From contig PGYM01000001.1 in assembly GCA_002839675.1 (NCBI GenBank), positions 1,071,602-1,095,601 of the forward strand: 24,000 nt of DNA, in the 5' to 3' direction. Numbering within the stretch: position 1 is the first letter of the stretch; each line of letters begins with the position of its first letter. The position numbers and the translations under genes are program-made. Source of the stretch: Methanomicrobiales archaeon HGW-Methanomicrobiales-1 (GTDB taxonomy: Archaea > Halobacteriota > Methanomicrobia > Methanomicrobiales > Methanospirillaceae). The notes under the pieces are model-generated. The model made no database searches. It was not told the DNA's origin and was given only the letters and a program-made list of their open reading frames with translations. Below are positions 3,794-19,340 of the stretch, in pieces.

Positions 3794-5170
3794 TCAGGTT
3801 TTCTTCCGACAGATACGGACAAAATGTTCGAGCATGCCCTTACTCCCCACCGGGTGCAGGTGGGTGTAACTGCCCAGCGTGTTGCTGATTACAGCGCCAT
3901 CGAGATTATCCTGGATACCGATACCCCGGTTAAGACGGTACGCGTATCGGGTACCGGTTGACAGGACAACATCAGAATGATGGAATTCATGCCCATGAAA
4001 TTGCGCTGCGCCAACAGGAGAGTCCGCATCGCTCGTACCGGTCACATAACTAACCACTCTGCGGGCAGGCATCCGGGTCTCCCCGGAAAAAACCCCGCAC
4101 ATTGCATACTGCCGGTTTTCAGTTGATCCCTGCCAGCCGGCCTGCAGGACAATGCGGTCGGTAAGATACATCAGCCCCCCGCATTCTGCATAAATCGGAG
4201 TCCCATTGGCTGATGCTGCACGGATAGCATCCCGCATAGCCTTGTTGGCTTCCAGTTCCCGGGCATAGAGTTCCGGGTATCCGCCACCAATGATGTAACC
4301 ATCGGCCCGTGGAAGATTGTCATGAACGGGACTGAACATCACGGGTTCTGCACCCAGCGAGCGAAGCACATCAAAGAGATCGGCATAGTAAAAATTGAAC
4401 GCTTCATCGAAGGCGATGCCAATCGTTACATCAGATTCCGTAGTTCTTTCGAATGCCGACGAAGGCTGCAAAGGAACATTCGTTTCTTTCATCAGGGAGA
4501 GCAGCCAGTCAAGATCCACGTATTGCCCGATCTTATCAGTGATCGTGCGAATCCGCGTATCGAAATCCCCTTTTCCGGCACCTTCACGATAAGGTACGAG
4601 TCCCAGGTGGCGCATGGTCAGCTGCATCTCGTCCATACGGGGGATTGCACCAATGACCGGCACCCCGCAGTAATGCTCAATGGCAGCCACCGCTTTTGCC
4701 TTGTGGGAACCGCCTTTTACATTGTTGAGAATGACCCCTGCAATCCGTATCTTCGGGTCAAATGCCTGGAAACCTTTCACGAGAGCCGCTGCACTGCGGG
4801 TAATGCTCTGTGCTGATACCACCAAGATTACCGGAAGATCGAGTTCCTTTGCGATTGCTGCGGTACTTCCTACATCGCTCAGCGCTTCTGCTCCCTCGTA
4901 AAGCCCTCGAACACCTTCGACAAGAGCAATATCGGCATCCCGACAGCCGTACGAGAAAATTTCATGAATCTGGCTGGTTGAGAGGGCAAAACTGTCAAGG
5001 TTCCGGCATGGCCGACCGGAAGCCGCCGCGAGGTAAGATGGATCGATATAATCCATTCCCACTTTAAACGTCTGGACGCGGTAATTTTTTGCGAGAAGCG
5101 CGGTGAGGGCAAGCGTGATACTGGTCTTGCCACTGCCGGATCGATCACCCGTGATAAGGATCTGTTTCAT
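3794..5170 (-). CDS. cfbB: Ni-sirohydrochlorin a,c-diamide synthase (CbiA/CobB-family amidotransferase)
   Basis: The 458-aa ORF has the N-terminal P-loop GDRSGSGKTS, a CobQ/CobB/MinD-type ATPase domain and a C-terminal glutamine amidotransferase domain (YAECGGLMYL, HEFHH). It abuts cfbD with no gap, which favours CfbB over the cobamide paralogue CbiA. Confidence 0.8.
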   Translation of the reverse strand: MKQILITGDRSGSGKTSITLALTALLAKNYRVQTFKVGMDYIDPSYLAAASGRPCRNLDSFALSTSQIHEIFSYGCRDADIALVEGVRGLYEGAEALSDVGSTAAIAKELDLPVILVVSAQSITRSAAALVKGFQAFDPKIRIAGVILNNVKGGSHKAKAVAAIEHYCGVPVIGAIPRMDEMQLTMRHLGLVPYREGAGKGDFDTRIRTITDKIGQYVDLDWLLSLMKETNVPLQPSSAFERTTESDVTIGIAFDEAFNFYYADLFDVLRSLGAEPVMFSPVHDNLPRADGYIIGGGYPELYARELEANKAMRDAIRAASANGTPIYAECGGLMYLTDRIVLQAGWQGSTENRQYAMCGVFSGETRMPARRVVSYVTGTSDADSPVGAAQFHGHEFHHSDVVLSTGTRYAYRLNRGIGIQDNLDGAVISNTLGSYTHLHPVGSKGMLEHFVRICRKKT

Positions 5171-6232
5171 CTACAAGCTCCGGAGAACCGCCCCGAATTC
5201 GCTCTCAACAATGTCGCGGACACCCAGCGTCTTGGGGTGGAGGTCTATTTCGACCATCACGTGCTGGTGACCAAGATCCCGGAGCGGTTCTACCTGTCGG
5301 GGGCCGTTGGTGATGGAGAAACACTCAATTCCCGTTGTATATTCCTGAGGAATGGCATGAGGCACACCGGCAATCAATGCAAATGACGGTGCTATTTCCC
5401 GAATGCGTTTTCCGAGTGCATCGCCATTCGCGCCGTACTCATCCAGGGCACCGAGTAATTCTACCTTCAGGCCCCGTTTTTTCATCTCGTCAAGAATCCG
5501 TGCAGCATCGGCCCGCACTTTAGGCAGTCCCCGCTGGTCGAGATTGACAATATAGGTAATATCTGCATCAGGACACTTATCGTGGAGAGCGATCAGTTCA
5601 TCGGCAAACATGTATGCGGTCTCTTTCTTTGCATTTAAGATCGCAATTCCCTTTGCCCCACTCCGTGCGCATTGTTGTAGTCGCTGTGCTGCCACGTGTT
5701 TCATGTCGCCACGGGATGGTTCTATGTATGACTTGCTGGCTGCACCCCGGACGCGCTCAACCTCGTTGGCTTTCTGCATCAGGAACTGCTGGCGGGTGAG
5801 TTCCTCTTCAGTTATCCAGCCGGCCAGTTGCGCAGCTTCGAGCGTGGCTAGCACACCCGCGATATTTTCCAAAAATCCTGCATGAATATCGACTGCGATA
5901 GTCGGGGTGGTGATACCAGATCCGTCAATAGCGGACTGAAGGTCTTCCCCGATAATCATGGAGACACAGGTGCCGACCACAACCATCCGCTTTGGTGCGA
6001 AATTATCTTCGGCATACCGCAAAACATTCTCAAGCGATGCCTGGCCCCCGAATATGAACTCATTATCCGCAAGAGAGGTGGTGAGCACCCGCAGGCCATC
6101 TTCTTCCAAAAGACGTGCGTGCTTGAATGAACATCCTGACGGGCCGTGCAGGATCGCGACATCGGCTTCAAGATCGCGAGCGGTATAGAGCGCAGCAACG
6201 ATCGAACTGGGGCGGGGGTGCATGTACTTCAT
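5171..6232 (-). CDS. cfbD: Ni-sirohydrochlorin a,c-diamide reductive cyclase, nitrogenase NifD/BchN-like subunit (formerly methanogenesis marker 13 / NflD)
   Basis: The 353-aa ORF has a nitrogenase component-1-like fold signature (HGPSGCSFKHARLLEEDG, VVVGTCVSMIIGEDL). It sits between cfbE and cfbB. Confidence 0.85.
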   Translation of the reverse strand: MKYMHPRPSSIVAALYTARDLEADVAILHGPSGCSFKHARLLEEDGLRVLTTSLADNEFIFGGQASLENVLRYAEDNFAPKRMVVVGTCVSMIIGEDLQSAIDGSGITTPTIAVDIHAGFLENIAGVLATLEAAQLAGWITEEELTRQQFLMQKANEVERVRGAASKSYIEPSRGDMKHVAAQRLQQCARSGAKGIAILNAKKETAYMFADELIALHDKCPDADITYIVNLDQRGLPKVRADAARILDEMKKRGLKVELLGALDEYGANGDALGKRIREIAPSFALIAGVPHAIPQEYTTGIECFSITNGPRQVEPLRDLGHQHVMVEIDLHPKTLGVRDIVESEFGAVLRSL

Positions 6233-6241
6233 GGGTATCAG

Positions 6242-7495
6242 TTATCTCCAGGTTTTTACCGCAAGGACAATGGATCCTTTGTCGGTTTTTTCTACAGCCG
6301 CTCTCCGGCCTTCCTCCAGGGTCGTGCAGTGAGCATCGATACGATGCCGGATTCCACGGAACGCATCTGAACCCGGGTCCGGCATCCGTCCCACCCAGAT
6401 CAGGTTTGTGGGACATACTTTCTCAATTGCACTGATGATCTGGTATGCAGAAAAGCCTTCACAGACTGCACCATCACCTTCCACCTGCCCGATCACCAGG
6501 GTCAGATCTCTGGCCCCGGCGCAATGCCGGGCGTACCGGGAGGCACAGACCGTTGTCATAATATTTGTACCCGTATTGGCATTATCAACAATGATGATAT
6601 CCTTTTCATGGCTGATCGACATCCTTCCCGGGAGTGCGGCAAAATGATTGAGCGGTGTGGGATCCACGTTGAGCATCATTGCAGCTGCTGCGGCAAGCAT
6701 CAGGGGGAGGCGGTACGGGGGCAGGATGAAGAGGGGATTTGTCAGGATAAAACGCAGTCCATCCAGCTCAACCGTGCAGTTCATTCCATCGCACCGGGCA
6801 ATATCTTCAATATGCACGACTTTTTTATGGTCACCGGCAATTCCGTCAGCAACCAGGAGACGTTTTGCGTGTTGTGCCGATGCAATCTTTTCTTTTACGG
6901 CAAACTTCTTGCCGGCAGCAAAGGTATAATCCTCTGCTGAAGTGATGATGGCGAGATCCCCGGACCCAATAACCCCAAGAGAGATCTCAGCGACAAGCCA
7001 GCCATTCATCTGGTTGGCTGACTGCACTGCCGAAAGAACCGATGCGGGAGTAATACTCCGTTTTCCGAGAAACTCTTTTGTCGGATACGCATAGGTTCCG
7101 GTTGAAGTATGCAGTACACCGTTTCCCGGTAACAGGTGGGCAAGAGCATGTGCCGTGGTGGTCTTTCCCCGGGCCCCGGTGATCTCAATCATCGGGTGGG
7201 GAAGTTTTTCGCCCAGCAACCGGCGTACTGCTTCGTGATGGGTGATGACAGGGCTATTTCGGTTTTGTAAAAGCGGGTGTTCCGGGTCAAGGTGAACCGG
7301 TGCTACGATAAGATCATACGTCCAGGTACGGGCATTCTCTGCAATTTCCGGAGTGGTACCAGTATAGACATCCACAACATCAGTGACATGTCCCTGCCCT
7401 GCATACAGGTCGCCAATTTCCCTGCCGCCGTGGATTGTATCCAGTACCAGGATGTGCATAAAAAAGTTAGAGAATGGAAAGTGCTTTTTTTGCAT
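6242..7495 (-). CDS. cfbE: Coenzyme F430 synthetase (Mur-ligase family)
   Basis: It has the Mur-ligase ATP-binding motif EITGARGKTTT and a central/C-terminal Mur-ligase-like organisation. The longest ORF starts at 7495 and overlaps cfbA by 29 nt. The ATG at 7459 (MHILVLDTIHGG) is the more likely start. Confidence 0.85.
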   Translation of the reverse strand: MQKKHFPFSNFFMHILVLDTIHGGREIGDLYAGQGHVTDVVDVYTGTTPEIAENARTWTYDLIVAPVHLDPEHPLLQNRNSPVITHHEAVRRLLGEKLPHPMIEITGARGKTTTAHALAHLLPGNGVLHTSTGTYAYPTKEFLGKRSITPASVLSAVQSANQMNGWLVAEISLGVIGSGDLAIITSAEDYTFAAGKKFAVKEKIASAQHAKRLLVADGIAGDHKKVVHIEDIARCDGMNCTVELDGLRFILTNPLFILPPYRLPLMLAAAAAMMLNVDPTPLNHFAALPGRMSISHEKDIIIVDNANTGTNIMTTVCASRYARHCAGARDLTLVIGQVEGDGAVCEGFSAYQIISAIEKVCPTNLIWVGRMPDPGSDAFRGIRHRIDAHCTTLEEGRRAAVEKTDKGSIVLAVKTWR

Positions 7496-7883
7496 TCTTG
7501 ACCATCAGGTCTGCAAGCAGGGGATCGCTTCCGATAGGATCCGCGTATACAAGCGGGATCGAAGTCCCGTTCATAACAAAGCTCCCTTTCTTGGTACCTT
7601 CAGGAAGTCCGATCTCACCGGGAATATCCTTTTCGATGTGAACACCCTTTGCAAGGAACAGGGGGACAACAACGAGCACATCGATGGGTTCGTTACGGAA
7701 CGCATCGAGCGATTCCTTGATCGAGGGCTTGTTCACATTCATAAAACCGCACTTAACGATAAAATCCGTGTTGCCTGCCTTGATCATTGCAGCGGTTTTC
7801 TCGACAAGATCCTGATTGTAGGGCATCGTGCTGCCATGTCCTACAAGTAACATTCCTTTCTTACTCATTTGCGTAAACTCCAT
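7467..7883 (-). CDS. cfbA: Sirohydrochlorin nickelochelatase (small CbiX-type chelatase)
   Basis: The ORF is 138 aa (133 aa from the alternative start at 7868, MSKKGMLLVGHGS). It shows CbiX(S) hallmarks: the LLVGHGS catalytic His region and VVVPLFLAKGVH. It is the first gene of the cfb operon. Confidence 0.85.
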   Translation of the reverse strand: MEFTQMSKKGMLLVGHGSTMPYNQDLVEKTAAMIKAGNTDFIVKCGFMNVNKPSIKESLDAFRNEPIDVLVVVPLFLAKGVHIEKDIPGEIGLPEGTKKGSFVMNGTSIPLVYADPIGSDPLLADLMVKNAKKALSIL

Positions 7884-8012
7884 GGTATGTTTTTGAGGAT
7901 TTTTTAAATGTAACCATCTGGGTCAGTTCGATTTTCCGTATGCTGAAAAAACAGCACGAGAAAATACTACGTAAGAAAATATACCTGTAATTGTAATAAC
8001 TTTCTTGTTTTG

Positions 8013-8027
8013 ATCGCCATTGGCGAT
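8013..8027. promoter_or_regulatory. Perfect palindrome ATCGCCA-T-TGGCGAT in the divergent cfbA / 8246-operon intergenic region (candidate operator)
   Basis: The arms are 7 bp with a 1-nt centre. It is GC-rich against a very AT-rich 362-bp divergent promoter region. It lies 130 bp upstream of the cfbA ORF start and 219 bp upstream of the 8246 ATG. Confidence 0.3.
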
Positions 8028-8245
8028 AATACCCCTAACAGAGTACTCAATATTTTAAACCTGAAGATTTTGCGGGATTTTCCATTCGCTATCCATTCTT
8101 TTAAAAAAATTCTGCCATGCAAAGCACAATGCCGGAATGACCGGGAAAAATGCGGGAGTCTTAGAAAAAATGTAAAAAGATCCCTGTTTTTCTGAAAAAA
8201 ATATGCAAAGTAATTTGTTCAATCAGCCTCAACGGATATGAACTC

Positions 8246-9385
8246 ATGATGGATGCATTTGAGCGTTTCGGGCTGCTCATCAATGATCGGGTAGTCAGGA
8301 CACCGGTGGGAATTGCGTCCATGGCGGGCATTGTTGATGCACCATATGTGATGGAAAGAGCAGAGCATATCGGTTTTGCTTTCATTGGCGGGTATTCGAT
8401 CGATCAGCGGACCATGGATGCTGCCAGGAGCATTGCCGCAAAGGGAGATCGCAGGGAATTTTTGTATGATGACCCGATCGAAGAGTTGACCCGGCAGATC
8501 GCAATGATGGAAAAAAGCACGGTCATCCCGGGAATGAATCTTCGCGGCAGCACTCCGGAAGCATTCAGTGCCATTGCAGCCGCAATCGGTGACAAGGTAG
8601 TGTACGAAATCGATGCTCATTGTCGCCAGCCCGAGATGATAGCAGCAGGGTGCGGAGAGCACTTCTTAAAAAACCCGGACAAGCTTGTTGCAATCATAAA
8701 AGCATTAAAAAGCCATGGCGTTACCGTGTCAGTGAAGATACGGGCGGGTGTGGCAGCGGATGACCGTATCCTTTCCCGGATCCTCTGGAAAGCCGGGGCT
8801 GATATCCTGCATATCGATCTTATGGATTTTGGCCCGGCAAAACTCCGGCAGATCAGGAACAGTTGTCCCCTGATGCTGATTGCCAACAATTCGATCACCA
8901 GTTTTGACAAGATGAAAGAGATGCTCTCGCACGGCGCTGACCTTGTTTCACTCGCACGACAGTCAGATATCCGTACGCTCTCGGGACTGGATGCGGCCAT
9001 CACCCGGTATGCGGATGAAGAGGGTTGGTATAATGCCCCCAAGCAGCTCTGTCGCGGCGGGGATATCCGTTCACTGACATTCTGCTGCATGCCGGTAAAA
9101 GAGTGCCCCCTGATCCCAACACTCACACGCATCGGCATTACCAAGGAACAGTACATACACATGAAACTGGAGGGGGTGAAAGGCACTCCTCTCGACACCG
9201 GCCAGCAGACCTGTTTTGGCAGTCTTGCATGGTGTTGCAAAATCTCATCTCCCTGCATGTTCCGGGATATGACTATCCAGCAGACCGGTCTTTCAAAGAA
9301 AGAATATATGCGTCTCAAACGCGATCTCTCTGAAACGCTGATGAGCGGTGTCTTTCATGACGTGCCTACCGATGAGAGCAGCTGA
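8246..9385 (+). CDS. Fusion of a DUS/DHOD-like FMN-binding TIM barrel (archaeal FMN-binding family) with a C-terminal duplicated Cys-motif domain (resembles methanogenesis marker domain 9)
   Basis: The N-terminal ~255 aa include VRTPVGIASMAGI, EIDAHCRQPEM..AGCGE..LKNPDKL...IKALK, VSVKIRAG and ADILHIDLMD. This follows the dihydrouridine-synthase-like beta/alpha barrel pattern. The C-terminal ~115 aa carry two copies of C-x6-10-CC-x5-C (LCRGGDIRSLTFCCMPVKEC and TCFGSLAWCCKISSPC). Confidence 0.7.
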   Translation: MMDAFERFGLLINDRVVRTPVGIASMAGIVDAPYVMERAEHIGFAFIGGYSIDQRTMDAARSIAAKGDRREFLYDDPIEELTRQIAMMEKSTVIPGMNLRGSTPEAFSAIAAAIGDKVVYEIDAHCRQPEMIAAGCGEHFLKNPDKLVAIIKALKSHGVTVSVKIRAGVAADDRILSRILWKAGADILHIDLMDFGPAKLRQIRNSCPLMLIANNSITSFDKMKEMLSHGADLVSLARQSDIRTLSGLDAAITRYADEEGWYNAPKQLCRGGDIRSLTFCCMPVKECPLIPTLTRIGITKEQYIHMKLEGVKGTPLDTGQQTCFGSLAWCCKISSPCMFRDMTIQQTGLSKKEYMRLKRDLSETLMSGVFHDVPTDESS

Positions 9386-10178
9386 ACGGGCCCAGCTTGC
9401 CATGATGCTGGAAGTGTGCGCATTTCCCAAGCCCGGTAATGTCGATCGCTGCCACGATTATCCTGAAACACGTCTCGAACATTTTCTTGCATCCACGATC
9501 TTTGCACGCCCGGCACTTGAAGAAGCGGAAAAAGGCGAAGGCAGGATCGGCGAGATCATTCGGCATGCGGTCCAGCAGACCAATTGTCACAAAGGGGGAA
9601 ACACTCATTTTGGTGCATTCATTCTCCTCATTCCCCTTATTTATGGCAGTTCCATTGAAGGAGCAATGAAAGCCATAGAAAAAACAGATACCTCGGATGC
9701 TGTCGCTTTTTACCGGGCATTCGGCCTTACAAAAGTCCACACCTATTCTGATGATGAACTGGATGTGAATGACCCGAAATCCCTTGCGGAGTTGCGGGAT
9801 CGCGGGATGACATTATTGGATGTCATGCAGCATTCTGCTGAGCATGATATGGTGGCACGCGAGTGGGTAACCGGGTTTCCGCTGACCCGGCGGGGTGCAG
9901 ATCTCTTGAAACACTTCGGACCGGGACGGGATTCTATTGTCCAGATGTTCATAACTCTTCTTGCCCAGGAACCGGATACCTTCATTATCAAGAAGCATGG
10001 TACAATCGTTGCACAGGATACGATGCGCAAAGCCCGTGAAGTGCTTGATGGTAATGAGACCCTTGCAGGATTTGACCAGGACTGCATTGACAGGAATATC
10101 AACCCGGGCTCGATTGCCGATATAACGATAGCGGCGATTTTTATTGCCCTGGGAGAAGGATGGGAATGGGACTCTTAA
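9357..10178 (+). CDS. CitG-like protein (triphosphoribosyl-dephospho-CoA synthase family homologue)
   Basis: It carries the family signature LEVCAFPKPGNVDR near the N-terminus. The ORF opens at GTG 9348. The ATGs at 9357 (GGTG 6 nt upstream) and 9372 are alternative starts. Every option overlaps the upstream gene end (9385). Confidence 0.75.
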   Translation: MTCLPMRAAERAQLAMMLEVCAFPKPGNVDRCHDYPETRLEHFLASTIFARPALEEAEKGEGRIGEIIRHAVQQTNCHKGGNTHFGAFILLIPLIYGSSIEGAMKAIEKTDTSDAVAFYRAFGLTKVHTYSDDELDVNDPKSLAELRDRGMTLLDVMQHSAEHDMVAREWVTGFPLTRRGADLLKHFGPGRDSIVQMFITLLAQEPDTFIIKKHGTIVAQDTMRKAREVLDGNETLAGFDQDCIDRNINPGSIADITIAAIFIALGEGWEWDS

Positions 10179-10720
10179 AACCGGGTATTAACGAAGTTAT
10201 TGCAACAACCGGGTTCAACGCAGCTCCCATGGGCATCATTTTCCGGAAAGGTGTGGCAAGAATGGTGCTGTTTTCCGGCACCCACACCGCAAATAATATT
10301 GAGAAAAACGGCTGGGTTGTGGCAAATTTTGTATATGACCCCATCCTGTACGTTACAACGGCCTTTGGGGATATCCCGCAGGACGCTTTTTCTGAAGAGA
10401 TAATCAATGGCAGGAAAATGCACCGGCTCAAGGATGCGGATGCATGGGCTGCGTTCACGGCCACGGTTGATAAAAAGACCTCCGAGGCGCTGATGGTCAC
10501 CCTCACGCTCCAGAAAGAGATCATCGAAGAAGTGTCTGTGCACCCGGTGAACCGCGGTTTTAACAGCATCATCGATATGACGGTGCATGCTACCAGATAC
10601 CAGGTGAACCGCGATCCTGAACTAAAAAAGCAGATCGATTACCATGCAGGAATTGTCAGAAAGTGCGGGGGAAAACAGGAACATGCAGCACTGGAACTTC
10701 TTCTGAACTATATTTCATGA
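10160..10720 (+). CDS. DUF447-like protein (predicted flavin-binding split-barrel type), function unknown
   Basis: The N-terminal pattern NEVIATTGFNAAPMGIIF matches my recollection of the DUF447 family (E.I.TT....NAAPMG). The start overlaps the CitG-like stop by 19 nt. Confidence 0.65.
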   Translation: MGMGLLKPGINEVIATTGFNAAPMGIIFRKGVARMVLFSGTHTANNIEKNGWVVANFVYDPILYVTTAFGDIPQDAFSEEIINGRKMHRLKDADAWAAFTATVDKKTSEALMVTLTLQKEIIEEVSVHPVNRGFNSIIDMTVHATRYQVNRDPELKKQIDYHAGIVRKCGGKQEHAALELLLNYIS

Positions 10721-10876
10721 TTCCCTGTTGAGAGACTTTTTTCTCATAAAAACCACATTTGCATTTCCGGTTAACCACTACGGTTTTATATTACCCAACT
10801 GCAACTCACTATATCTGCGCCCGACTTCGGTTATAACGTGGATGCGGCGAAAAAACCATTTCAGAGGCAGGATACC

Positions 10877-12223
10877 ATGCGCCCTATCAGCAAGGAAAAA
10901 AAGTTTATCTATGATATATTCATCATCATCAGCGTTCTTGCCTCGATAGGAATAACGTACCTCTCCATATCCCGGGGAATTTACGATGTATTCCCTTACT
11001 TCTACCTGATTCCGGTTGTGCTCATCTCCTTTACCCGGCCAAAGATCAGCATCTTTATTACAGTATTTGTCGGGTGGCTCTACATCGCCCTTGTATATTC
11101 CCTGGGTCTCCCGGATACCGGCATATTTGCACGGGCAACCGTGTGGTTCTTTATTTTCGTTTCCATCGGGGTTCTCATTTCGACCTATTCCCGGGAATAC
11201 CGTAAAGAAGGCGAACGGAGCTGTGGATCATTTTTCAACTCGCAGGCGGGGGTATTCGGTTATAACCGGGAAACACTGCTGATCATTGATCCAAACCGGA
11301 AATTTTCCCAGTTCATCGGCTATGAATGCGATGAACTTTTGTTAAAGACGCTGCCTGAGATCATCACCGATACAACAGAACGTGAATTGTTCCTGTCCCA
11401 AGTGCGGGATAAACGAAAGGTTGGAGACATTGAGGTCCGATTTTCCTGTGCAGACGGAAGTAAACGCTGGGCACTGGCATCAGCTACCGATTGCGCTGAA
11501 CCGGCAATTCTCTGTACGGTTGTCGATATTACCGAACAAAAGCAGGCCCAGGATGCCCTCCGCCTTGCAAACCGGAAACTCAATCTGCTCAATAATGTTA
11601 CCCGGCATGATATTCTCAACCAGCTGACAGCGCTCATCGGGTATCTCGAAATATCCCGGGAGGAAGAAAAAGATCCCCGGTTACTGTCCTATGTGACCAA
11701 GGAAGAACAGGCAGCAAATGCCATTCGTCACCAGATCCTGTTCACCCGTGACTACCAGAATATCGGGGTTCATTCTCCCCAATGGTATAATATTGGTGAG
11801 ACAGTCTCACTGGTGATGGCAACTCTCGAAATCCGTCATATCAGGGTTACGATGAATATCGCATCCATTGAAATTTATGCGGATCCGTTACTGGAGAAAG
11901 TATTTTACAACCTGATTGAAAACTCCCTCCGTCATGGGGAACGGGTGACTGAGATAGAGATCATTTCAGAAACGGTTAATGACGGCATCAATATTATTAT
12001 CAGCGACAATGGCACAGGAATTCCTGACGATGCCAAAGAACAGATCTTCCGGAGAGCATATTTCAAACATACCGGATTCGGCCTCTTTTTGACCCGTGAA
12101 ATCCTTGCGATCACCAACCTGACAATCACGGAAAACGGAGTCTTTGGAAAGGGAGCCCGGTTTGTGATCCATGCACCCCCGGGAACATATCGTTCCATTC
12201 TGGGAAATGACACTATAGTATAA
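10877..12223 (+). CDS. Membrane-bound PAS sensor histidine kinase
   Basis: It has four predicted N-terminal TM helices and a PAS domain (...CTVVDITEQKQAQDAL). It also has an archaeal-type H-box (LNNVTRHDILNQLTAL) and an HATPase_c domain (N-box YNLIENSLRHG, G-boxes SDNGTGIP and GFGLFL). The ORF opens at GTG 10838, but ATG 10877 (MRPISKEKK) is the likelier start. Confidence 0.85.
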   Translation: MRPISKEKKFIYDIFIIISVLASIGITYLSISRGIYDVFPYFYLIPVVLISFTRPKISIFITVFVGWLYIALVYSLGLPDTGIFARATVWFFIFVSIGVLISTYSREYRKEGERSCGSFFNSQAGVFGYNRETLLIIDPNRKFSQFIGYECDELLLKTLPEIITDTTERELFLSQVRDKRKVGDIEVRFSCADGSKRWALASATDCAEPAILCTVVDITEQKQAQDALRLANRKLNLLNNVTRHDILNQLTALIGYLEISREEEKDPRLLSYVTKEEQAANAIRHQILFTRDYQNIGVHSPQWYNIGETVSLVMATLEIRHIRVTMNIASIEIYADPLLEKVFYNLIENSLRHGERVTEIEIISETVNDGINIIISDNGTGIPDDAKEQIFRRAYFKHTGFGLFLTREILAITNLTITENGVFGKGARFVIHAPPGTYRSILGNDTIV

Positions 12224-12305: not shown

Positions 12306-13301
12306 TCAGCACACACGGGGTACTGGATCACCCATGGGCGGTTCAATGAATCGTTCTCCCCCAATGGATGTTTCCATTATAACATGGGAACCTTTTGTTA
12401 CAGTCCCGATTACCGTAGCTTCTCTTCCGTATTTGTGCGACCGGAGGGCTGCAAGGATTGCATCCACGCTGGATGCCGGAACACCCATCACTACCTTCCC
12501 CTCATTTGCCACCTCAAGCGGATCGATACCCAGCATGCCGGCTGCACTTTTTACATTCTTACGAATGGGCACTCTTTCTTCCTGGATACGAACACAAACC
12601 CCACTTTTTCTGGCCATTTCATTGATAGCAGCCGCAAATCCGCCGCGTGTCGGATCCTTCATCGCATGAATGGTACCTGCATCAAGGGCTTTATCAACCA
12701 TATTCCAGAGCGGCGCTACATCGGACTTGATCTGCTCCCCGAGATCAAATCCCTCGCGGTGTGCCATAATTGCCAGACCGTGATCGCCGAGGGTGCCGGA
12801 AACGATGATCACATCACCGGGCATAAGACCATTGTCCCGGACAATGGTTTTTGCTATGCCGATACCGGCAGTATTGATTGCTATGCCATCAATAGCACCC
12901 TTCTCCATAACTTTTGTGTCACCGGTGACGAGGTTCGCCCCGCATTCCCCAAGGGCATCATCCATAGATACAACAATCTTTGCGAGATCATCGATCTCAA
13001 ATCCCTCTTCAATGATCATGCCACAGGAGAGTGCGATTGGACGACCGCCCATCATTGCAAGATCATTGACGGTTCCGCAGACAGAAATTCTGCCGATGTC
13101 GCCCCCGGGGAAAAAGACCGGACGGACAACATGGGAATCTGTGGTAAAAACAATATTTTGTCCATTTAACGGGATGACGGCCCCGTCATCCAGCGCCTCA
13201 AGTCCAATACCTCCGGCATTATTATGTTTGAACTTCGTGAGCGTTTGTAAAAGTTCGCCCATAACTTCTCCACCGGCTCCGTGCATTATATTGACTTTCA
13301 T
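12306..13301 (-). CDS. hypE: [NiFe]-hydrogenase maturation protein HypE (carbamoyl dehydratase)
   Basis: The 331-aa ORF has an AIR-synthase-related fold (LDDGAVI, TTDSHVV.P.FFPGGDIG, GTVNDLAMMG) and the diagnostic C-terminal PRVC tail. Confidence 0.95.
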   Translation of the reverse strand: MKVNIMHGAGGEVMGELLQTLTKFKHNNAGGIGLEALDDGAVIPLNGQNIVFTTDSHVVRPVFFPGGDIGRISVCGTVNDLAMMGGRPIALSCGMIIEEGFEIDDLAKIVVSMDDALGECGANLVTGDTKVMEKGAIDGIAINTAGIGIAKTIVRDNGLMPGDVIIVSGTLGDHGLAIMAHREGFDLGEQIKSDVAPLWNMVDKALDAGTIHAMKDPTRGGFAAAINEMARKSGVCVRIQEERVPIRKNVKSAAGMLGIDPLEVANEGKVVMGVPASSVDAILAALRSHKYGREATVIGTVTKGSHVIMETSIGGERFIEPPMGDPVPRVC

Positions 13302-15362: not shown

Positions 15363-16355
15363 ATGTTAATGATTTCTGAACGGATCGAAAAACCCCTTGC
15401 AAGCTGGCGGGGAAAAGAGCGGTACGATAACGAACTGCTGGATTGCCTCACGGTAATTTTTAAAACTGCCGGGTGCACCTGGTCAAAATGCCGGATGTGC
15501 AGTTACCGCCACGAGCGGTACGATAAGCAATCATGCGAAAAACTTGCTGAACACCTGTCAGCCCAGCTTGCCTGGGTAAAAAACGAGTTCAAACCCGAGG
15601 ATTACCGGATGGTTAAGATCTTCACATCAGGAAGTTTTTTTGATCCTGCTGAAGTACCGGCAGCATTTCTGGGGGAAGTTGCAAAATATTTCCGCGGCAA
15701 ACTGGTAATCGCCGAGACCCGGCCGGAGTTTGTCGATTCTGACGTGATCCGTACATTCATTGAAAACCTTGACGATGGTACCTGGAAAAAACCGCTCTAT
15801 TGTGCGGTCGGGCTGGAAACGAGCAGCGATCCCATCCGGGAAAAATGCATCAACAAGGGCTTTACCTATGCAGAATTTACAGCAGCAGTATCACGAGCCA
15901 AAGCAGCAGGAGCAGGTATCAAGGCATACCTCCTGTTCAAACCGCTCTTTTTAACGGAGAAAGAGTCGCTTGATGATATGAAACAGTCAATCCGCGATGC
16001 AGCTTCACATACCGAAATGATCTCGATGAACCCCTGCACAGTTCAGCGGAGAACTGAACTTGAATTTTACTGGAAGCGGGGCGCATACCGCCCGCCCTAT
16101 CTCTGGAGTGTTCTTACCCTTCTCAAAGATGCCCCGGTTCATATGACCTGCGATCCGCTCGGTGGCGGGCAAAAACGGGGACCCCATAACTGCGGTACCT
16201 GTGATTATGATCTGGTCAAAGGCATCCGCGACTATTCCTTAAATGCAGACAGGGAGTTGATCAATGCCCTGTTAGAAACACCCTGTGAATGCAAAAAAGA
16301 GTGGGAGTACGTTCTGGCGCATGAAACGCCATTCTGCATGCCACTGACCCGTTGA
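15363..16355 (+). CDS. ELP3-like radical SAM protein of the archaeal RaSEA family (archaeosine biosynthesis partner of ArcS), tentative
   Basis: The 330-aa ORF has a Cys triad C-x4-C-x2-C (AGCTWSKCRMCSY), as in ELP3-type radical SAM enzymes. Archaeal-only family features include FTSGSFFD and a C-terminal Cys-rich tail (HNCGTCDYD, CECKKEW). The specific RaSEA assignment comes from memory of the family, not from a search. Confidence 0.55.
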   Translation: MLMISERIEKPLASWRGKERYDNELLDCLTVIFKTAGCTWSKCRMCSYRHERYDKQSCEKLAEHLSAQLAWVKNEFKPEDYRMVKIFTSGSFFDPAEVPAAFLGEVAKYFRGKLVIAETRPEFVDSDVIRTFIENLDDGTWKKPLYCAVGLETSSDPIREKCINKGFTYAEFTAAVSRAKAAGAGIKAYLLFKPLFLTEKESLDDMKQSIRDAASHTEMISMNPCTVQRRTELEFYWKRGAYRPPYLWSVLTLLKDAPVHMTCDPLGGGQKRGPHNCGTCDYDLVKGIRDYSLNADRELINALLETPCECKKEWEYVLAHETPFCMPLTR

Positions 16356-16372: not shown

Positions 16373-16392
16373 AAAAAAAATATTATTTTTTT
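16373..16392. terminator. Bidirectional oligo-A/oligo-T terminator candidate between convergent genes
   Basis: The sequence is AAAAAAAA-TATTA-TTTTTTT. The T7 run lies downstream of the + strand gene (stop 16353..16355). The A8 run reads as T8 on the minus strand, just downstream of the minus-strand gene stop (16383..16385). Confidence 0.4.
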
Positions 16393-17657
16393 GCTGCAGC
16401 ACTCTGGAGCTCGAGCTGTTTTGCGAGCAGGGGTAGGAATGTTCCGGCATCGGACACGATACCAATTGCCTGTGTCGTGCCACGGTCCATCAGTTTGGTA
16501 AGATGGGCAGGATTGATGTCCACGCAGACCGTCTTGACTTTTGAAGGCAGGCAGTTGCCGACAGCGATGGAGTGGAGGAGAGTTGCAATCATTAACACCA
16601 TGCTGCACCCTTCGATATGCTTGCGCATTGCATCCTGCGCTTCCATGACATCCTGAATTACATCAGGTAAAGGCCCGTCGTCCCGGATAGACCCGGCAAG
16701 GACGAATGGGATATTCTTCTTGACACATTCATACATTATCCCGCTTTTTATTACCCCATTGTCAACGGCATTCTTTATTGATCCCGCTCTCATGATCTCG
16801 CTTATCGCATAGAGATGATGTTTATGACCGCCCATGACGGGTTTTCCCGTTGAAATATCCATTCCGAGGGAAGTACCATAGATATTATACTCGATATCGT
16901 GAGTAGGCAGGGCATTGCCCGCAAAAAGGACATCGATATACCCTTTATGGATCAGTTCCGCCAAGGCTTTGTCCGCTCCGGTATGGATGATCGCAGGTCC
17001 CCCGACAACTGCAATTTTTCCTCCCTTCTTCCGGACGTCAAGAATTTCCCGGGCGATCCGGGCAATGAGGGTCTCACTGGGTCGTTCGGAAGATACCGTG
17101 CCATGCATGAACTCAAATGTGCTCTCCTCGCGGGGACGTTCAGGATAATTCACACTTACTCCCTGTTCCCCGACAATAACCAGATCCCCTTTGCGGATTT
17201 TTCCCAAGGCAACAGCTGCTGCACGTTTCTTTTTTGGATCCACGACAATGAGAAAATCCATCTCTATTGATTCTACCGGAATCCACTCGCCCTGGTATTT
17301 AATTTCCGTGGGATGATTAGAGGTTGTATAGAATCCCTTGGGGACAACGCGATCCGCTTCCGCTGCGACAAGGAAGACATCCTTGACTTCGACCGGGCGG
17401 GCACCGAGACGATGAACTTCGGACAGGATAGAACGGAGGTTCTCATTACTTGAGGCGTTGATCCGGAGGCGGGCATAACTCGGGTCGGTCTTCTTCTTAC
17501 CTATATCAAAGACCAGGATCTCATAGTTGCCGCCCATATCCATGACCCGGTCGAAGAGCTGTGTCATAATCCCGGAGTCTATGATATGACCCCGCAGCTC
17601 TATCTCCTGCGACTCTCCCATAATACCATGATCTTGGTGATGCACCTTAATATGCAT
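16383..17657 (-). CDS. LOR/SDH-domain family protein (the conserved archaeal family I recall as TIGR00300); possibly an ornithine cyclodeaminase-type enzyme
   Basis: The 424-aa ORF has an N-terminal ACT-like segment (IELRGHIIDSGIMTQLFDRVMDMGG.YEI..F.IGK) followed by a Rossmann-like domain (KIAVVGGPAIIHTGA). An alternative start at M13 (17621) is plausible. The function call is weak. Confidence 0.5.
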   Translation of the reverse strand: MHIKVHHQDHGIMGESQEIELRGHIIDSGIMTQLFDRVMDMGGNYEILVFDIGKKKTDPSYARLRINASSNENLRSILSEVHRLGARPVEVKDVFLVAAEADRVVPKGFYTTSNHPTEIKYQGEWIPVESIEMDFLIVVDPKKKRAAAVALGKIRKGDLVIVGEQGVSVNYPERPREESTFEFMHGTVSSERPSETLIARIAREILDVRKKGGKIAVVGGPAIIHTGADKALAELIHKGYIDVLFAGNALPTHDIEYNIYGTSLGMDISTGKPVMGGHKHHLYAISEIMRAGSIKNAVDNGVIKSGIMYECVKKNIPFVLAGSIRDDGPLPDVIQDVMEAQDAMRKHIEGCSMVLMIATLLHSIAVGNCLPSKVKTVCVDINPAHLTKLMDRGTTQAIGIVSDAGTFLPLLAKQLELQSAAAKK

Positions 17658-17727: not shown

Positions 17728-18354
17728 TTATGAAAATGGTTTTCCTGCAGATTTCGTAACAGGATTTTGCCGGATAAAAATCTCAGCTTCAGCAAGATCA
17801 GCTTTCGTATTAATATTAAGAGCCAGGCGGGGTTCTTCTAAAAGCAGCTGAAACTCATCCTGGGGTTGGTCAATAAGTGCACCATGCAGGATATTTACTC
17901 CCGCCGGGCAAACCATAACACCGAGTATCTCTTCGCGGTAAGGCATACCCTCCCGACAGGATTTTACCATTGCTGCAGGCACCCAGGCAGAACAGGCATC
18001 TTTTCCGCTGGAACGATGCGCATCAGAAATCGTACTGATGATATCCGAGGTAATGCAGGGAAGATCGGAAGCACTGATAAACACCGGTCCTTCATCTTCG
18101 AGCATACCAACCGCTTGTACCATATCTTCCACATACCCGGTACCAGCAGTTTTACAGAATTCAATGCCATGGGCCCGACACCAGTTCTGGGTCATCGGTG
18201 TCCGGAATGAGGTTGCTATAACGGGTTTGCACCCGGCATCTTCAAACGCATCAACCACGTAGGAAACCAAGGGTTGTCCACAGATCAAAATAAGCGGTTT
18301 TTCCCCAAGGTTAAGCCTGCTTCCTGCACCCCCTGCCATGATCAGGGCGTGCAT
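17728..18354 (-). CDS. cobY: Adenosylcobinamide-phosphate guanylyltransferase, archaeal CobY-type nucleotidyltransferase
   Basis: It has the N-terminal NTP-transferase motif LIMAGGAGSRL..EKPL, is about 200 aa, and overlaps the upstream cobD-like gene by 13 nt. Confidence 0.65.
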   Translation of the reverse strand: MHALIMAGGAGSRLNLGEKPLILICGQPLVSYVVDAFEDAGCKPVIATSFRTPMTQNWCRAHGIEFCKTAGTGYVEDMVQAVGMLEDEGPVFISASDLPCITSDIISTISDAHRSSGKDACSAWVPAAMVKSCREGMPYREEILGVMVCPAGVNILHGALIDQPQDEFQLLLEEPRLALNINTKADLAEAEIFIRQNPVTKSAGKPFS

Positions 18355-19340
18355 GCCGCTAAAGCCTCCATGAGCAGAAGATTTTCTTCCCGGGTCCTGA
18401 CTGCAACGCGAATATGGGTAGGCATCCCAAAGGATGTGCAGTTCCTAACAAGAATCAGGCGCCCCTCCAGGCACTCGCAAATCTTTGTGGCATCACGATA
18501 ACATTCCACAAGAATATAATTTACTGATGAGGGGTGACAGTGGAATCCCAGCGCTTCAATCTCCTGGGAGAGCCAGTCACGTTCCTTCCGTATTCGGTCT
18601 CGCGATACCTTAAGATCATCCATATGGAGAAGCGCCTCCATGGCAAAAGCCTCGGCAAAGGAATTCACGCTCCAGGGAGAACGGGATATTTCTATCTTCT
18701 CAACCAGATCCGGGTCCCCAAATCCAAAACCGAACCTGATTCCCGGAACCGAAAAACTTTTTGTTATTGAATGCAGGACAAAGAGATTTGAGTCATTGAC
18801 GCCGGAAAGACTCTGGTCAGGATCAGAAAGGTCAATAAAAGCTTCATCGCAAAAGAGCATCCCGCCATGCGATCTCATATCGGCAAGTTTCTGTACCAGA
18901 CTCTTTTTTTCCTGTAATATACCGGTTGGATTGTTGGGATTGCAGATGAACGAGACATCTGCCATCGCAGGATTATCCACAGGTGTAGCTCCTGCAAGAC
19001 GTGCAGAAAGTGCATATTCACCAAATGTCGGGGATTCACAAAAAAAATGTTTATCCCCGCGAAGCACGACAGAGCAAAACGCCCTGATCAACTCTATCGA
19101 ACCGTTGCCTACACAAATCTCCTCGGGGTCGCGATGGAATATTGCACCAATTCGTTCCTTAAGTTCATGGTAGGAGTCGTCCGGATACGAAGCAAGGAGT
19201 GCCGGATCGCAGTGCCAGGCAAACTGTGGGGGAAAGGGATTGACACTCGCGCTGAAATCCAGCACACTTTTCCGGGTTTTTTCGAGCTGGCGCTTTCCAG
19301 TCCCCCCATGAACCACTCGTTTAGGAAAATCAAGAGTCAC
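18342..19340 (-). CDS. cobD: Class I/II PLP enzyme, probable L-threonine-O-3-phosphate decarboxylase (a HisC-like aminotransferase cannot be excluded)
   Basis: It has the NPNNPTG motif and the PLP-lysine motif SITKSFSVPGIRFG. The GTG start is preceded by AGGAGG. Translational coupling to cobY favours CobD. Confidence 0.65.
   Translation of the reverse strand: MTLDFPKRVVHGGTGKRQLEKTRKSVLDFSASVNPFPPQFAWHCDPALLASYPDDSYHELKERIGAIFHRDPEEICVGNGSIELIRAFCSVVLRGDKHFFCESPTFGEYALSARLAGATPVDNPAMADVSFICNPNNPTGILQEKKSLVQKLADMRSHGGMLFCDEAFIDLSDPDQSLSGVNDSNLFVLHSITKSFSVPGIRFGFGFGDPDLVEKIEISRSPWSVNSFAEAFAMEALLHMDDLKVSRDRIRKERDWLSQEIEALGFHCHPSSVNYILVECYRDATKICECLEGRLILVRNCTSFGMPTHIRVAVRTREENLLLMEALAACTP

Follow-up and report, generated by a model that had tools for sequence, protein, structure and literature searches.

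A conserved three-gene operon of Methanomicrobiales encoding a flavin-type barrel, a CitG-like protein and a DUF447 protein, with a possible role in tailoring the methanopterin side chain

Methanopterin and coenzyme F420 are the central carriers of one-carbon (C1) units and hydride in methanogenesis and in the anaerobic oxidation of methane, and tetrahydromethanopterin (H4MPT) also serves bacterial methylotrophy. To our knowledge, no enzyme of the H4MPT pathway has been assigned to the ribofuranosyl-to-ribityl reduction or to the addition of the alpha-ribosyl phosphate. For such an alpha-linkage an inverting transferase requires a beta-configured donor, e.g., ATP, as CitG does. The gene families treated here are already known, as is the link of two of them, the CitG-like orf7 and the DUF447 gene orf19 of methylotrophic bacteria, to H4MPT islands; Orf5, OrfY, Orf9, Orf17, Orf21 and Orf22 of the same methylotroph cluster have been assigned to methylofuran synthesis (PMC8141765). 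Here we describe a three-gene operon in a 24,000-nucleotide (nt) stretch, the window, of Methanomicrobiales archaeon HGW-Methanomicrobiales-1 (GCA_002839675.1, contig PGYM01000001.1, positions 1,071,602 to 1,095,601 of the forward strand). Its genes encode a flavin mononucleotide (FMN)-type TIM barrel fused to the Cys-rich methanogenesis-marker-9 domain (gene 1), a protein of the CitG family (gene 2) and a DUF447 protein (gene 3). We tentatively read this trio as a cofactor-tailoring module acting on the ribitol-ribose side chain of H4MPT, a reading to which we give a probability of roughly 0.4.

Gene 1 (8246-9385; 379 amino acids, aa), gene 2 (9357-10178; 273 aa) and gene 3 (10160-10720; 186 aa) lie on the + strand and overlap at both junctions, as had been reported in an earlier note made from the letters of this DNA alone. 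Genes 1 and 2 share 29 nt (9357-9385), or 14 nt if gene 2 starts at 9372, and genes 2 and 3 share 19 nt (10160-10178). For gene 2, the earlier note had named 9348, 9357 and 9372 as starts. Homologues from close Methanoregula relatives, found by protein search, are 273 or 268 aa long, and the true start is therefore ATG 9357 or ATG 9372, both upstream of the gene 1 stop codon (9383-9385), and not GTG 9348, which opens a 276-aa open reading frame (ORF) ending at 10178. The start of gene 3, which the note had placed ahead of the end of gene 2, is ATG 10160, possibly 10166, and indeed precedes the gene 2 stop codon (10176-10178). A purine-rich run, GGGAGAAGG, at 10151-10159 contains GGAG and may serve as the ribosome-binding site of gene 3. 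Among related loci, 71 have the same 29-nt overlap of genes 1 and 2 and 5 have one of 4 nt, and 73 share the 19-nt overlap of genes 2 and 3. Both overlaps are conserved and not a matter of chance, and they suggest that the three proteins may be co-translated and may form a complex.

The gene order is kept as well. A genome scan gave 597 matching loci, and in the best 80 of these, all from Methanomicrobiales (Methanoregulaceae, Methanoculleus and others), the order gene 1-gene 2-gene 3 was present in every case (80/80). The DNA of the window is Methanoregula-like, and genes 1 and 2 have their nearest homologues (94-96% identity) in Methanoregula or in metagenome-assembled genomes (MAGs) of Methanomicrobiales. 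The same order occurs in Methanosarcina-like loci, in haloarchaea and in a more distant Methanomicrobiales-like lineage (L178/L179; 56% identity), so that the synteny in related genomes, on which the earlier note had staked its proposal, is borne out. As an orthologue of a widespread module, which is a variant of CitG-type chemistry, the locus in the window is unremarkable. It is solid that the trio is a real operon, ancient within Halobacteriota, that its products are a CitG-type transferase and two enzymes of flavoprotein type, and that it belongs to cofactor biosynthesis.

Gene 2 matched Pfam CitG (PF01874) at 9e-72 over the whole profile (residues 12-267 against profile positions 1-284 of 284), and PDB entry 3h9p matched it at 1e-37. 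The motifs KPG-VD, G-NTH-G, D-(T/S) and (N/S)PG--AD are common to gene 2 and E. coli CitG, and the core residues K25, G27, N82, G86, D207, P250, G251, A254 and D255 are invariant in an alignment that includes the E. coli protein (alignment A5). The equivalog models for CitG and MdcB, in contrast, scored far below their cutoffs (TIGR03125, 38.4 bits vs 272; NF007503, 26.9 vs 477; NF002315, 29.1 vs 280; TIGR03132, 20 vs 282), in agreement with the caution of the earlier note, which had called the protein CitG-like and not CitG. Source annotations nevertheless name homologues of gene 2 'triphosphoribosyl-dephospho-CoA synthase', and the full-length Pfam match could be taken in the same sense, i.e., gene 2 would make the prosthetic group of the acyl carrier protein (ACP) of citrate lyase or malonate decarboxylase. 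This is highly improbable, and we rejected it on the equivalog scores together with the genomic context: neither the window nor any of more than 90 related loci mapped by tblastn or gene annotation contained citX/mdcG, ACP or lyase genes, whereas citG of E. coli is part of a citCDEFXG operon. CitG-type chemistry is plausible for gene 2, a predicted nucleotide-dependent ribosyl transferase; identity with CitG is not.

The N-terminal domain of gene 1 (residues 1-259; 8246-9022) is a TIM barrel of the class formed by dihydroorotate dehydrogenases (DHODs) and dihydrouridine synthases (Dus). In an AlphaFold2 model of gene 1, most of residues 20-250 reached a pLDDT (predicted local distance difference test) of 80-97, and Foldseek matched the barrel best to L. 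lactis DHODB PyrD (E 4e-9, probability 1.00), human DHODH and T. thermophilus Dus. In structure it is closest to class 1B and class 2 DHODs, then to Dus, at identities of 13-18%. At the fold level the modelled barrel falls into the DHOD/Dus class of FMN barrels, with putative binding of FMN. The Pfam Dus match was weak (5e-7) and confined to profile positions 60-216 of 311; the equivalog models for DusB (28.9 bits vs 293) and DusC (15.8 vs 395) stayed below cutoff, the DHOD equivalog models also fell far under theirs, and the C-terminal part of gene 1 is the marker-9 domain in place of the C-terminal helical domain of Dus. TIGR00736, the MJ0144 family, scored 123.5 bits on the barrel against a cutoff of 218.7, and 110-189 bits, likewise under cutoff, on gene 1 orthologues elsewhere. 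This family is the closest relative of the barrel; by the curated threshold the barrel is a sister group of it and not a member. Within the barrel, the motif EIDAHC126RQPE stands out: E[IV][ND]AHCRQ is invariant across four lineages (alignment A4), and C126 is invariant in alignment A6. This and the other barrel motifs quoted in the earlier note (KNPDKL, VSVKIRAG) were all found in gene 1. A second barrel Cys (GC136G; window 8651-8653) is conserved in Methanomicrobiales, in haloarchaea and in contig L086; the Methanosarcina-like and Fpo-adjacent groups described below have A, V, I or T in its place, and only Cys126 is universally invariant.

The tail of gene 1 (residues 260-366; 9023-9343) is a clear match to TIGR03277, methanogenesis marker 9 (161.8 bits vs a cutoff of 96.2, 5e-48), and gene 1 homologues from close Methanoregula relatives (74-96% identity, protein search) are named 'methanogenesis marker 9 domain-containing protein'. 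It holds two repeats, C-x10-CC-x5-C (nt 9050-9106) and C-x6-CC-x5-C (nt 9212-9256), with Cys at residues 269, 280, 281 and 287 and at residues 323, 330, 331 and 337. The internal duplication, which the earlier note had described as eight Cys at 9050-9256, withstood a statistical comparison: a local alignment of residues 269-311 with residues 323-365 scored 55, compared with 21.9 +/- 4.4 for shuffled sequences, and 0 of 500 shuffles reached 55. Each repeat contains a motif of the type [WFY]CC-x-x-K-x-C (FCCMPVKEC and WCCKISSPC), and all eight Cys are invariant in nine sequences of 40-65% identity, so the conservation of the Cys motifs on which the earlier note had staked its proposal was found. 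In the AlphaFold2 model the tail has a pLDDT below 50. Its Cys pattern probably marks two putative metal or Fe-S sites. Under the old COG4008 label, marker 9 would be a transcription factor; we rejected such a role, as the domain is fused to an enzyme and matched no DNA-binding family.

Gene 3 matched both halves of the DUF447 family, DUF447_N (PF04289; 1e-29, 102.9 bits vs a gathering score of 24) and DUF447_C (PF20766; 1e-20, 73.8 bits vs 24.8). Its matches in PDB were the four structural-genomics DUF447 structures 2nr4 (6e-30), 2iml, 2ptf and 3b5m, in which we take FMN to be bound. The next profile matches were marginal (1eje, 'FMN-binding protein', E 0.012; 3nfw, flavin reductase-like, 0.058), and one DUF447 homologue had a weak match to PNPOx_N; the family may be related to FMN-binding split-barrel proteins. 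A single-sequence AlphaFold model of DUF447 reached a pLDDT of 31.6 and was unusable for a fold search, and a DUF447 search of plasmid records gave no match. With this, the four family assignments of the earlier note, namely a Dus/DHOD-type FMN barrel, marker 9, CitG and DUF447, were all recovered by hidden Markov model or fold searches.

Two independent lines of genomic evidence, together with a chemical fit, lead us to the methanopterin side chain. One comes from bacteria. Searching plasmid and chromid records by tblastn, we found the CitG-like gene in replicons of Aquabacterium, Phyllobacterium and Azospirillum, and all three replicons carry a complete 'archaeal-like' island. Two gene orders occur there, mptG-mtdB-ATP-grasp-mch-RimK-CitG-like(-fae) and flavoprotein (afpA)-dihydropteroate synthase (DHPS)-like-DUF447, and the same islands also contain mfnB/E/F-like genes, a HisA-like barrel and fhc/fwd-type genes. 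The published methylotroph orders mch-orf5-orf7-fae and orf19-orf20-afpA agree with these islands (PMC3615186; PMC11533326). The other line comes from archaea: in two Methanosarcina-like loci (L167:524-4156 and L172:5929-9627) the full trio is followed directly by dmrX, whose 239-aa product is a dihydromethanopterin reductase (TIGR02700, 409 bits vs a cutoff of 251). The DUF447 proteins of these two loci are 80-83% identical to the chain of PDB entry 2nr4, which we take to be Methanosarcina mazei MM1853, and their CitG-like proteins are longer than usual (346-360 aa) owing to an insertion.

The chemical fit may be outlined as follows. In the manner of CitG, gene 2 would take the ribosyl group from ATP or a different beta-nucleotide, a hydroxyl group displacing the base under inversion, and would thereby form an alpha-(1->5) ribosyl (phosphate) linkage to the ribitol of a methanopterin precursor. 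The putative FMN split barrel of gene 3, the barrel of gene 1, or both, could carry out the two-electron flavin reduction that opens beta-ribofuranosyl-aminobenzene to the ribityl chain. The conserved Cys of gene 1 would be the acid of a DHOD/Dus-type FMN enzyme, and the 8-Cys marker-9 tail might form two metal or Fe-S sites passing low-potential electrons to the FMN in methanogens. Our data show the families, their conserved motifs, the kept order with its overlaps and the gene neighbourhoods; the substrates, the allocation of the reduction step between the two flavoproteins, the binding of metal and the complex are all inferred.

Elsewhere in the archaea the three genes are found in several combinations. 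The CitG-like/DUF447 pair occurs, usually with a 4-nt overlap and with no adjacent barrel, in Methanoperedens, Methanocellales, anaerobic methanotrophic archaea of group 2 (ANME-2) and the lineages L093 and L177, and the CitG-like gene stands alone in Ca. Alkanophaga and in one Methanospirareceae MAG. With the barrel as seed, a scan of metagenome contigs returned 70 high-GC and ten low-GC loci. In all ten low-GC loci the barrel is fused to the marker-9 domain. In the four that were examined in detail (L100, L116, L148 and L163) this gene is solitary, lies near 5930-7050 in the three long loci, and is divergent from a Nuo/Fpo-like complex I operon; the divergent neighbours in L148 are NuoB/NuoD-type subunits (NuoD 495 bits, the FpoD model under cutoff). 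The conserved core across lineages is the CitG-like/DUF447 pair, and the barrel adjoins it in some lineages only. A 31% GC contig (L086:3-1699) encodes a barrel with a cut N terminus and no marker-9 domain seen, a CitG-like protein and an overlapping downstream ORF. The downstream fragment of 42 aa had no tblastn match to gene 3 and is a candidate DUF447 only; with it, L086 would add another lineage in which the order of the trio is kept.

The 70 high-GC loci are of haloarchaeal type, their barrel proteins being strongly acidic with 0.8% Lys. Here cofD lies directly upstream of the barrel in all 54 loci whose flank is long enough, in many cases with the two genes abutting or overlapping, and the CitG-like gene follows the barrel in 46 of 57, giving the cluster cofD-barrel-CitG-like-DUF447; about ten haloarchaeal loci have cofD and the barrel only. 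The cofD gene is a true equivalog (TIGR01819, 359 bits vs a cutoff of 257). In the metagenome contig L090 (L090:3869-9535) barrel, CitG-like and DUF447 genes overlap at all junctions with cofD nearby, and the same four-gene arrangement is seen in L087:3169-8457. On the Natrinema thermotolerans chromid, a CitG-domain gene 38.5% identical to gene 2 overlaps a DUF447 gene, and 2 kb upstream of this pair cofD overlaps a gene for a 253-aa 'dihydropyrimidine dehydrogenase' that is 38% identical to the gene 1 barrel (E 4e-43). The haloarchaeal copies of the three families are thus at the level of orthologues (38-39% identity). Haloarchaea are reported to use tetrahydrofolate and to be without methanopterin-specific enzymes, and are not known to contain a methanopterin-like compound; they do retain Mch, Mer (adjoining cofE) and a gene resembling the synthase of beta-ribofuranosylaminobenzene 5'-phosphate (RFAP) (PMC8305020).

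Several of these results weigh against a role of the whole trio in methanopterin synthesis. The earlier note had named occurrence in organisms lacking H4MPT as a point at which the link would fail, and this has at least in part been observed: haloarchaea, reported to be users of folate, carry the trio, without the Cys domain and next to cofD, so that the distribution is not limited to H4MPT users (PMC8305020). The MJ0144-type barrel was absent from all three bacterial islands examined, and several archaeal lineages have the barrel-marker-9 gene away from the pair. In the bacterial islands the CitG-like gene (orf7) overlaps the gene of the RimK-type ligase Orf5/MyfB by 4 nt (L088:5362-6288, L174:5932-6795, L175:5923-6867), and MyfB has been assigned to methylofuran polyglutamylation (PMC8141765); the bacterial CitG-like protein could therefore serve the methylofuran or the dephospho-H4MPT (dH4MPT) pathway. 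Regarding the chemistry as well there is a discrepancy. Work with cell extracts reportedly named phosphoribosyl pyrophosphate (PRPP), not ATP, as the ribosyl donor. The H4MPT link proposed earlier is supported by the bacterial islands and by dmrX, and is weakened by the haloarchaea and by the islands that lack the barrel.

The haloarchaeal clusters point elsewhere, to the tail of coenzyme F420. The barrel of gene 1 could be the missing archaeal supplier of the phospholactyl moiety of F420, acting as a flavin ene-reductase that converts phosphoenolpyruvate (PEP) to 2-phospho-L-lactate, or enolpyruvyl-diphospho-5'-guanosine (EPPG) or dehydro-F420-0 to the lactyl form; DUF447 would be its flavin reductase or partner, and the part of the CitG-like protein would be accessory and nucleotide-dependent. 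One very strong line, the unbroken adjacency of a true cofD to the barrel and the frequent full cluster, leads to this proposal, along with the distribution of the barrel and the chemistry of DHOD-type ene-reductases. The barrel is present where F420 is (methanogens and haloarchaea) and absent from the bacterial H4MPT islands examined; proteobacterial H4MPT users, as far as we know, do not make F420. Class 1A DHODs reduce fumarate with an FMN barrel and Cys chemistry, and the fold and the invariant Cys of the gene 1 barrel would suit such a reaction. The reduction of an enolpyruvyl group by a flavoenzyme has a precedent in FbiB (PMC6450877), and no archaeal origin of 2-phospho-L-lactate ('CofB') has yet been identified (PMC8498797; PMC8764529). 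On the other hand, a CitG-type ribosyl transferase has no obvious task in F420 chemistry, and in bacteria the CitG-like and DUF447 genes are located in H4MPT/methylofuran islands. In the Methanosarcina-like loci the gene that follows the trio is dmrX and not a cof gene, and neither the window nor the 80 Methanomicrobiales loci have a cof gene close to the trio. We consider an F420 role for the trio unlikely, yet in need of serious attention. Every reading comes with one anomaly: haloarchaea would make, or would once have made, a methanopterin-like compound, or else the bacterial pair would have been repurposed.

Equally possible is a division of labor, in which the CitG-like/DUF447 pair acts on a methanopterin-type side chain and the barrel is linked to F420 (in synthesis of the tail or in the use of F420H2), the genes being co-transcribed since the two cofactors function in one and the same C1 pathway (Mer, Mch). 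It would account for the pair without the barrel in bacteria and in the five archaeal groups named above, for the barrel-marker-9 gene alone beside the Nuo/Fpo-like operon, for the roughly ten loci with cofD and barrel only and for the 2 kb between pair and barrel in Natrinema; the Mch, Mer (by cofE) and RFAP-synthase-like gene kept by haloarchaea would fit, too (PMC8305020). The length-conserved overlaps of all three genes in Methanomicrobiales and the overlapping genes of L090 suggest instead a single functional unit. Under such a division, haloarchaea would have an unrecognised methanopterin-like product, which is not known from them (PMC8305020), or a repurposed pair. In its most specific form, with a pair that builds the alpha-ribosyl-ribitol of methanopterin and a barrel that is the phospholactyl-supplying ene-reductase (on PEP, EPPG or dehydro-F420-0), missing since about 2001, in place of the never-found 'lactate kinase CofB', the proposal is doubtful; if true, haloarchaea still make a methanopterin-like molecule, or have repurposed the machinery for one, beside cofD. 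A quite different proposal would follow from the name that NCBIfam gives to the MJ0144 family: gene 1 as an RNA dihydrouridine-synthase-like enzyme and the CitG-like protein adding a 2'-O-ribosyl phosphate to RNA. The chemistry of CitG is the 2'-O-ribosylation of an adenosine moiety, and both the Pfam Dus match and the presence of T. thermophilus Dus among the fold matches agree with it. That match, however, spans the barrel only in part, the scores for DusB and DusC are a small fraction of their cutoffs, the best fold matches are DHODs and not Dus, and all informative neighbours (dmrX, cofD, the H4MPT islands) are cofactor-biosynthesis genes, which makes a function in RNA modification very improbable.

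For the methanopterin side chain, our preferred assignment, as for F420, the operon supplies three candidates that fit gaps in the pathways: an inverting ribosyl transferase of CitG type, a DHOD-type flavin barrel and a small, putatively flavin-binding protein of split-barrel type (DUF447). With these steps assigned, pathways targeted by methane-mitigation inhibitors would become complete, and heterologous production of the cofactors would be aided. Genetically tractable organisms exist on both sides, Haloferax with the genes by cofD and Methanosarcina with the genes by dmrX. The haloarchaeal cluster also calls into question whether haloarchaea have lost all of their methanopterin-specific machinery. 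In the literature within reach, we found no functional study of DUF447, of marker 9/TIGR03277/COG4008/MJ0144, or of CitG together with methanopterin, and in the same limited literature no description of barrel-marker-9 as a fixed partner of the pair, of dmrX beside the whole trio or of the haloarchaeal cofD-barrel-CitG-like-DUF447 cluster.

Within the window, the trio is divergent from the F430 operon, as had been stated before: CfbA, CfbE, CfbD and CfbB all scored above their NCBIfam cutoffs. The genes cfbB, cfbD, cfbE and cfbA are contiguous on the - strand (3794-7883), with an overlap of 29 nt between cfbE and cfbA; no cfbC (NifH-like) was seen inside this cluster. In nearly all Methanomicrobiales loci with enough flank, including Methanoculleus, the cfb operon lies divergently upstream of the trio. 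Since this adjacency is limited to Methanomicrobiales, it offers no functional clue, and a functional link between the trio and the F430 operon was rejected. Two MAGs labelled 'delta proteobacterium' and 'Gemmatimonadales bacterium' (L013 and L017) carry a Methanoregula-type trio with cfb at 77-79% identity, and their labels probably reflect binning contamination. The AT-rich intergenic region between cfbA (-) and gene 1 (+) (7884-8245; A/T-rich runs, e.g., at 8100-8110 and 8195-8210) is presumably the site of both putative archaeal promoters. On the other side, a T6 run (10737-10742, +), 17 nt past the gene 3 stop codon, is a possible oligo-T terminator of archaeal type at the end of the operon. 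Beyond it lie a gene for a membrane PAS/histidine kinase (10838-12223, +), whose position is conserved in a subset of Methanoregula loci, and the hydrogenase maturation gene hypE (12306-13301, -). Further along the window are genes for the archaeosine radical-SAM protein RaSEA (15363-16355), a nickel-pincer-nucleotide-dependent ornithine cyclodeaminase (16383-17657) and, overlapping each other, a MobA-like nucleoside triphosphate (NTP) transferase and a class I/II aminotransferase (17728-19340) with a putative resemblance to the cobamide enzymes CobY/CobD.

Among described systems, class 1B DHODs (PyrD with the Fe-S/flavin adenine dinucleotide (FAD) subunit PyrK) and Dus resemble the gene 1 barrel as FMN TIM barrels with an active-site Cys, and DHODB partners its FMN barrel with an iron-sulfur electron-transfer module. 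In gene 1 the corresponding electron module would be the fused 8-Cys marker-9 domain in place of a PyrK-type subunit, and the genes around it relate to the synthesis of cofactors and not of pyrimidines. The two nearest families, MJ0144 (TIGR00736) and marker 9 (TIGR03277), are both hypothetical equivalogs, with the tail of gene 1 a clear member of the latter; in contrast to this fusion, the haloarchaeal barrel orthologues carry the marker-9 domain in 0 of 70 loci. [quoted passage not shown]

In the methylotroph cluster, orf7 (CitG-like) is homologous to gene 2 at 24-29% identity and orf19 (DUF447) to gene 3 at 18-21%. The bacterial islands differ from the trio in that these two genes are not adjacent, orf7 following RimK/MyfB and orf19 following the DHPS-like gene, and in that they hold no barrel of MJ0144 type and no marker-9 domain. 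CitG/MdcB (EC 2.4.2.52), finally, is the closest system for gene 2, which is a full-length member of the same Pfam family and has the four motifs and nine core residues in common with it. Unlike CitG and MdcB, gene 2 has no CitX/MdcG, ACP or lyase partner; its fixed partners are DUF447 and, often, the DHOD-type barrel. Given these partners and the sub-cutoff scores, the acceptor is not expected to be dephospho-CoA, and the chemistry is probably still of CitG type, with a nucleotide as ribosyl donor and an alpha-glycosidic product.

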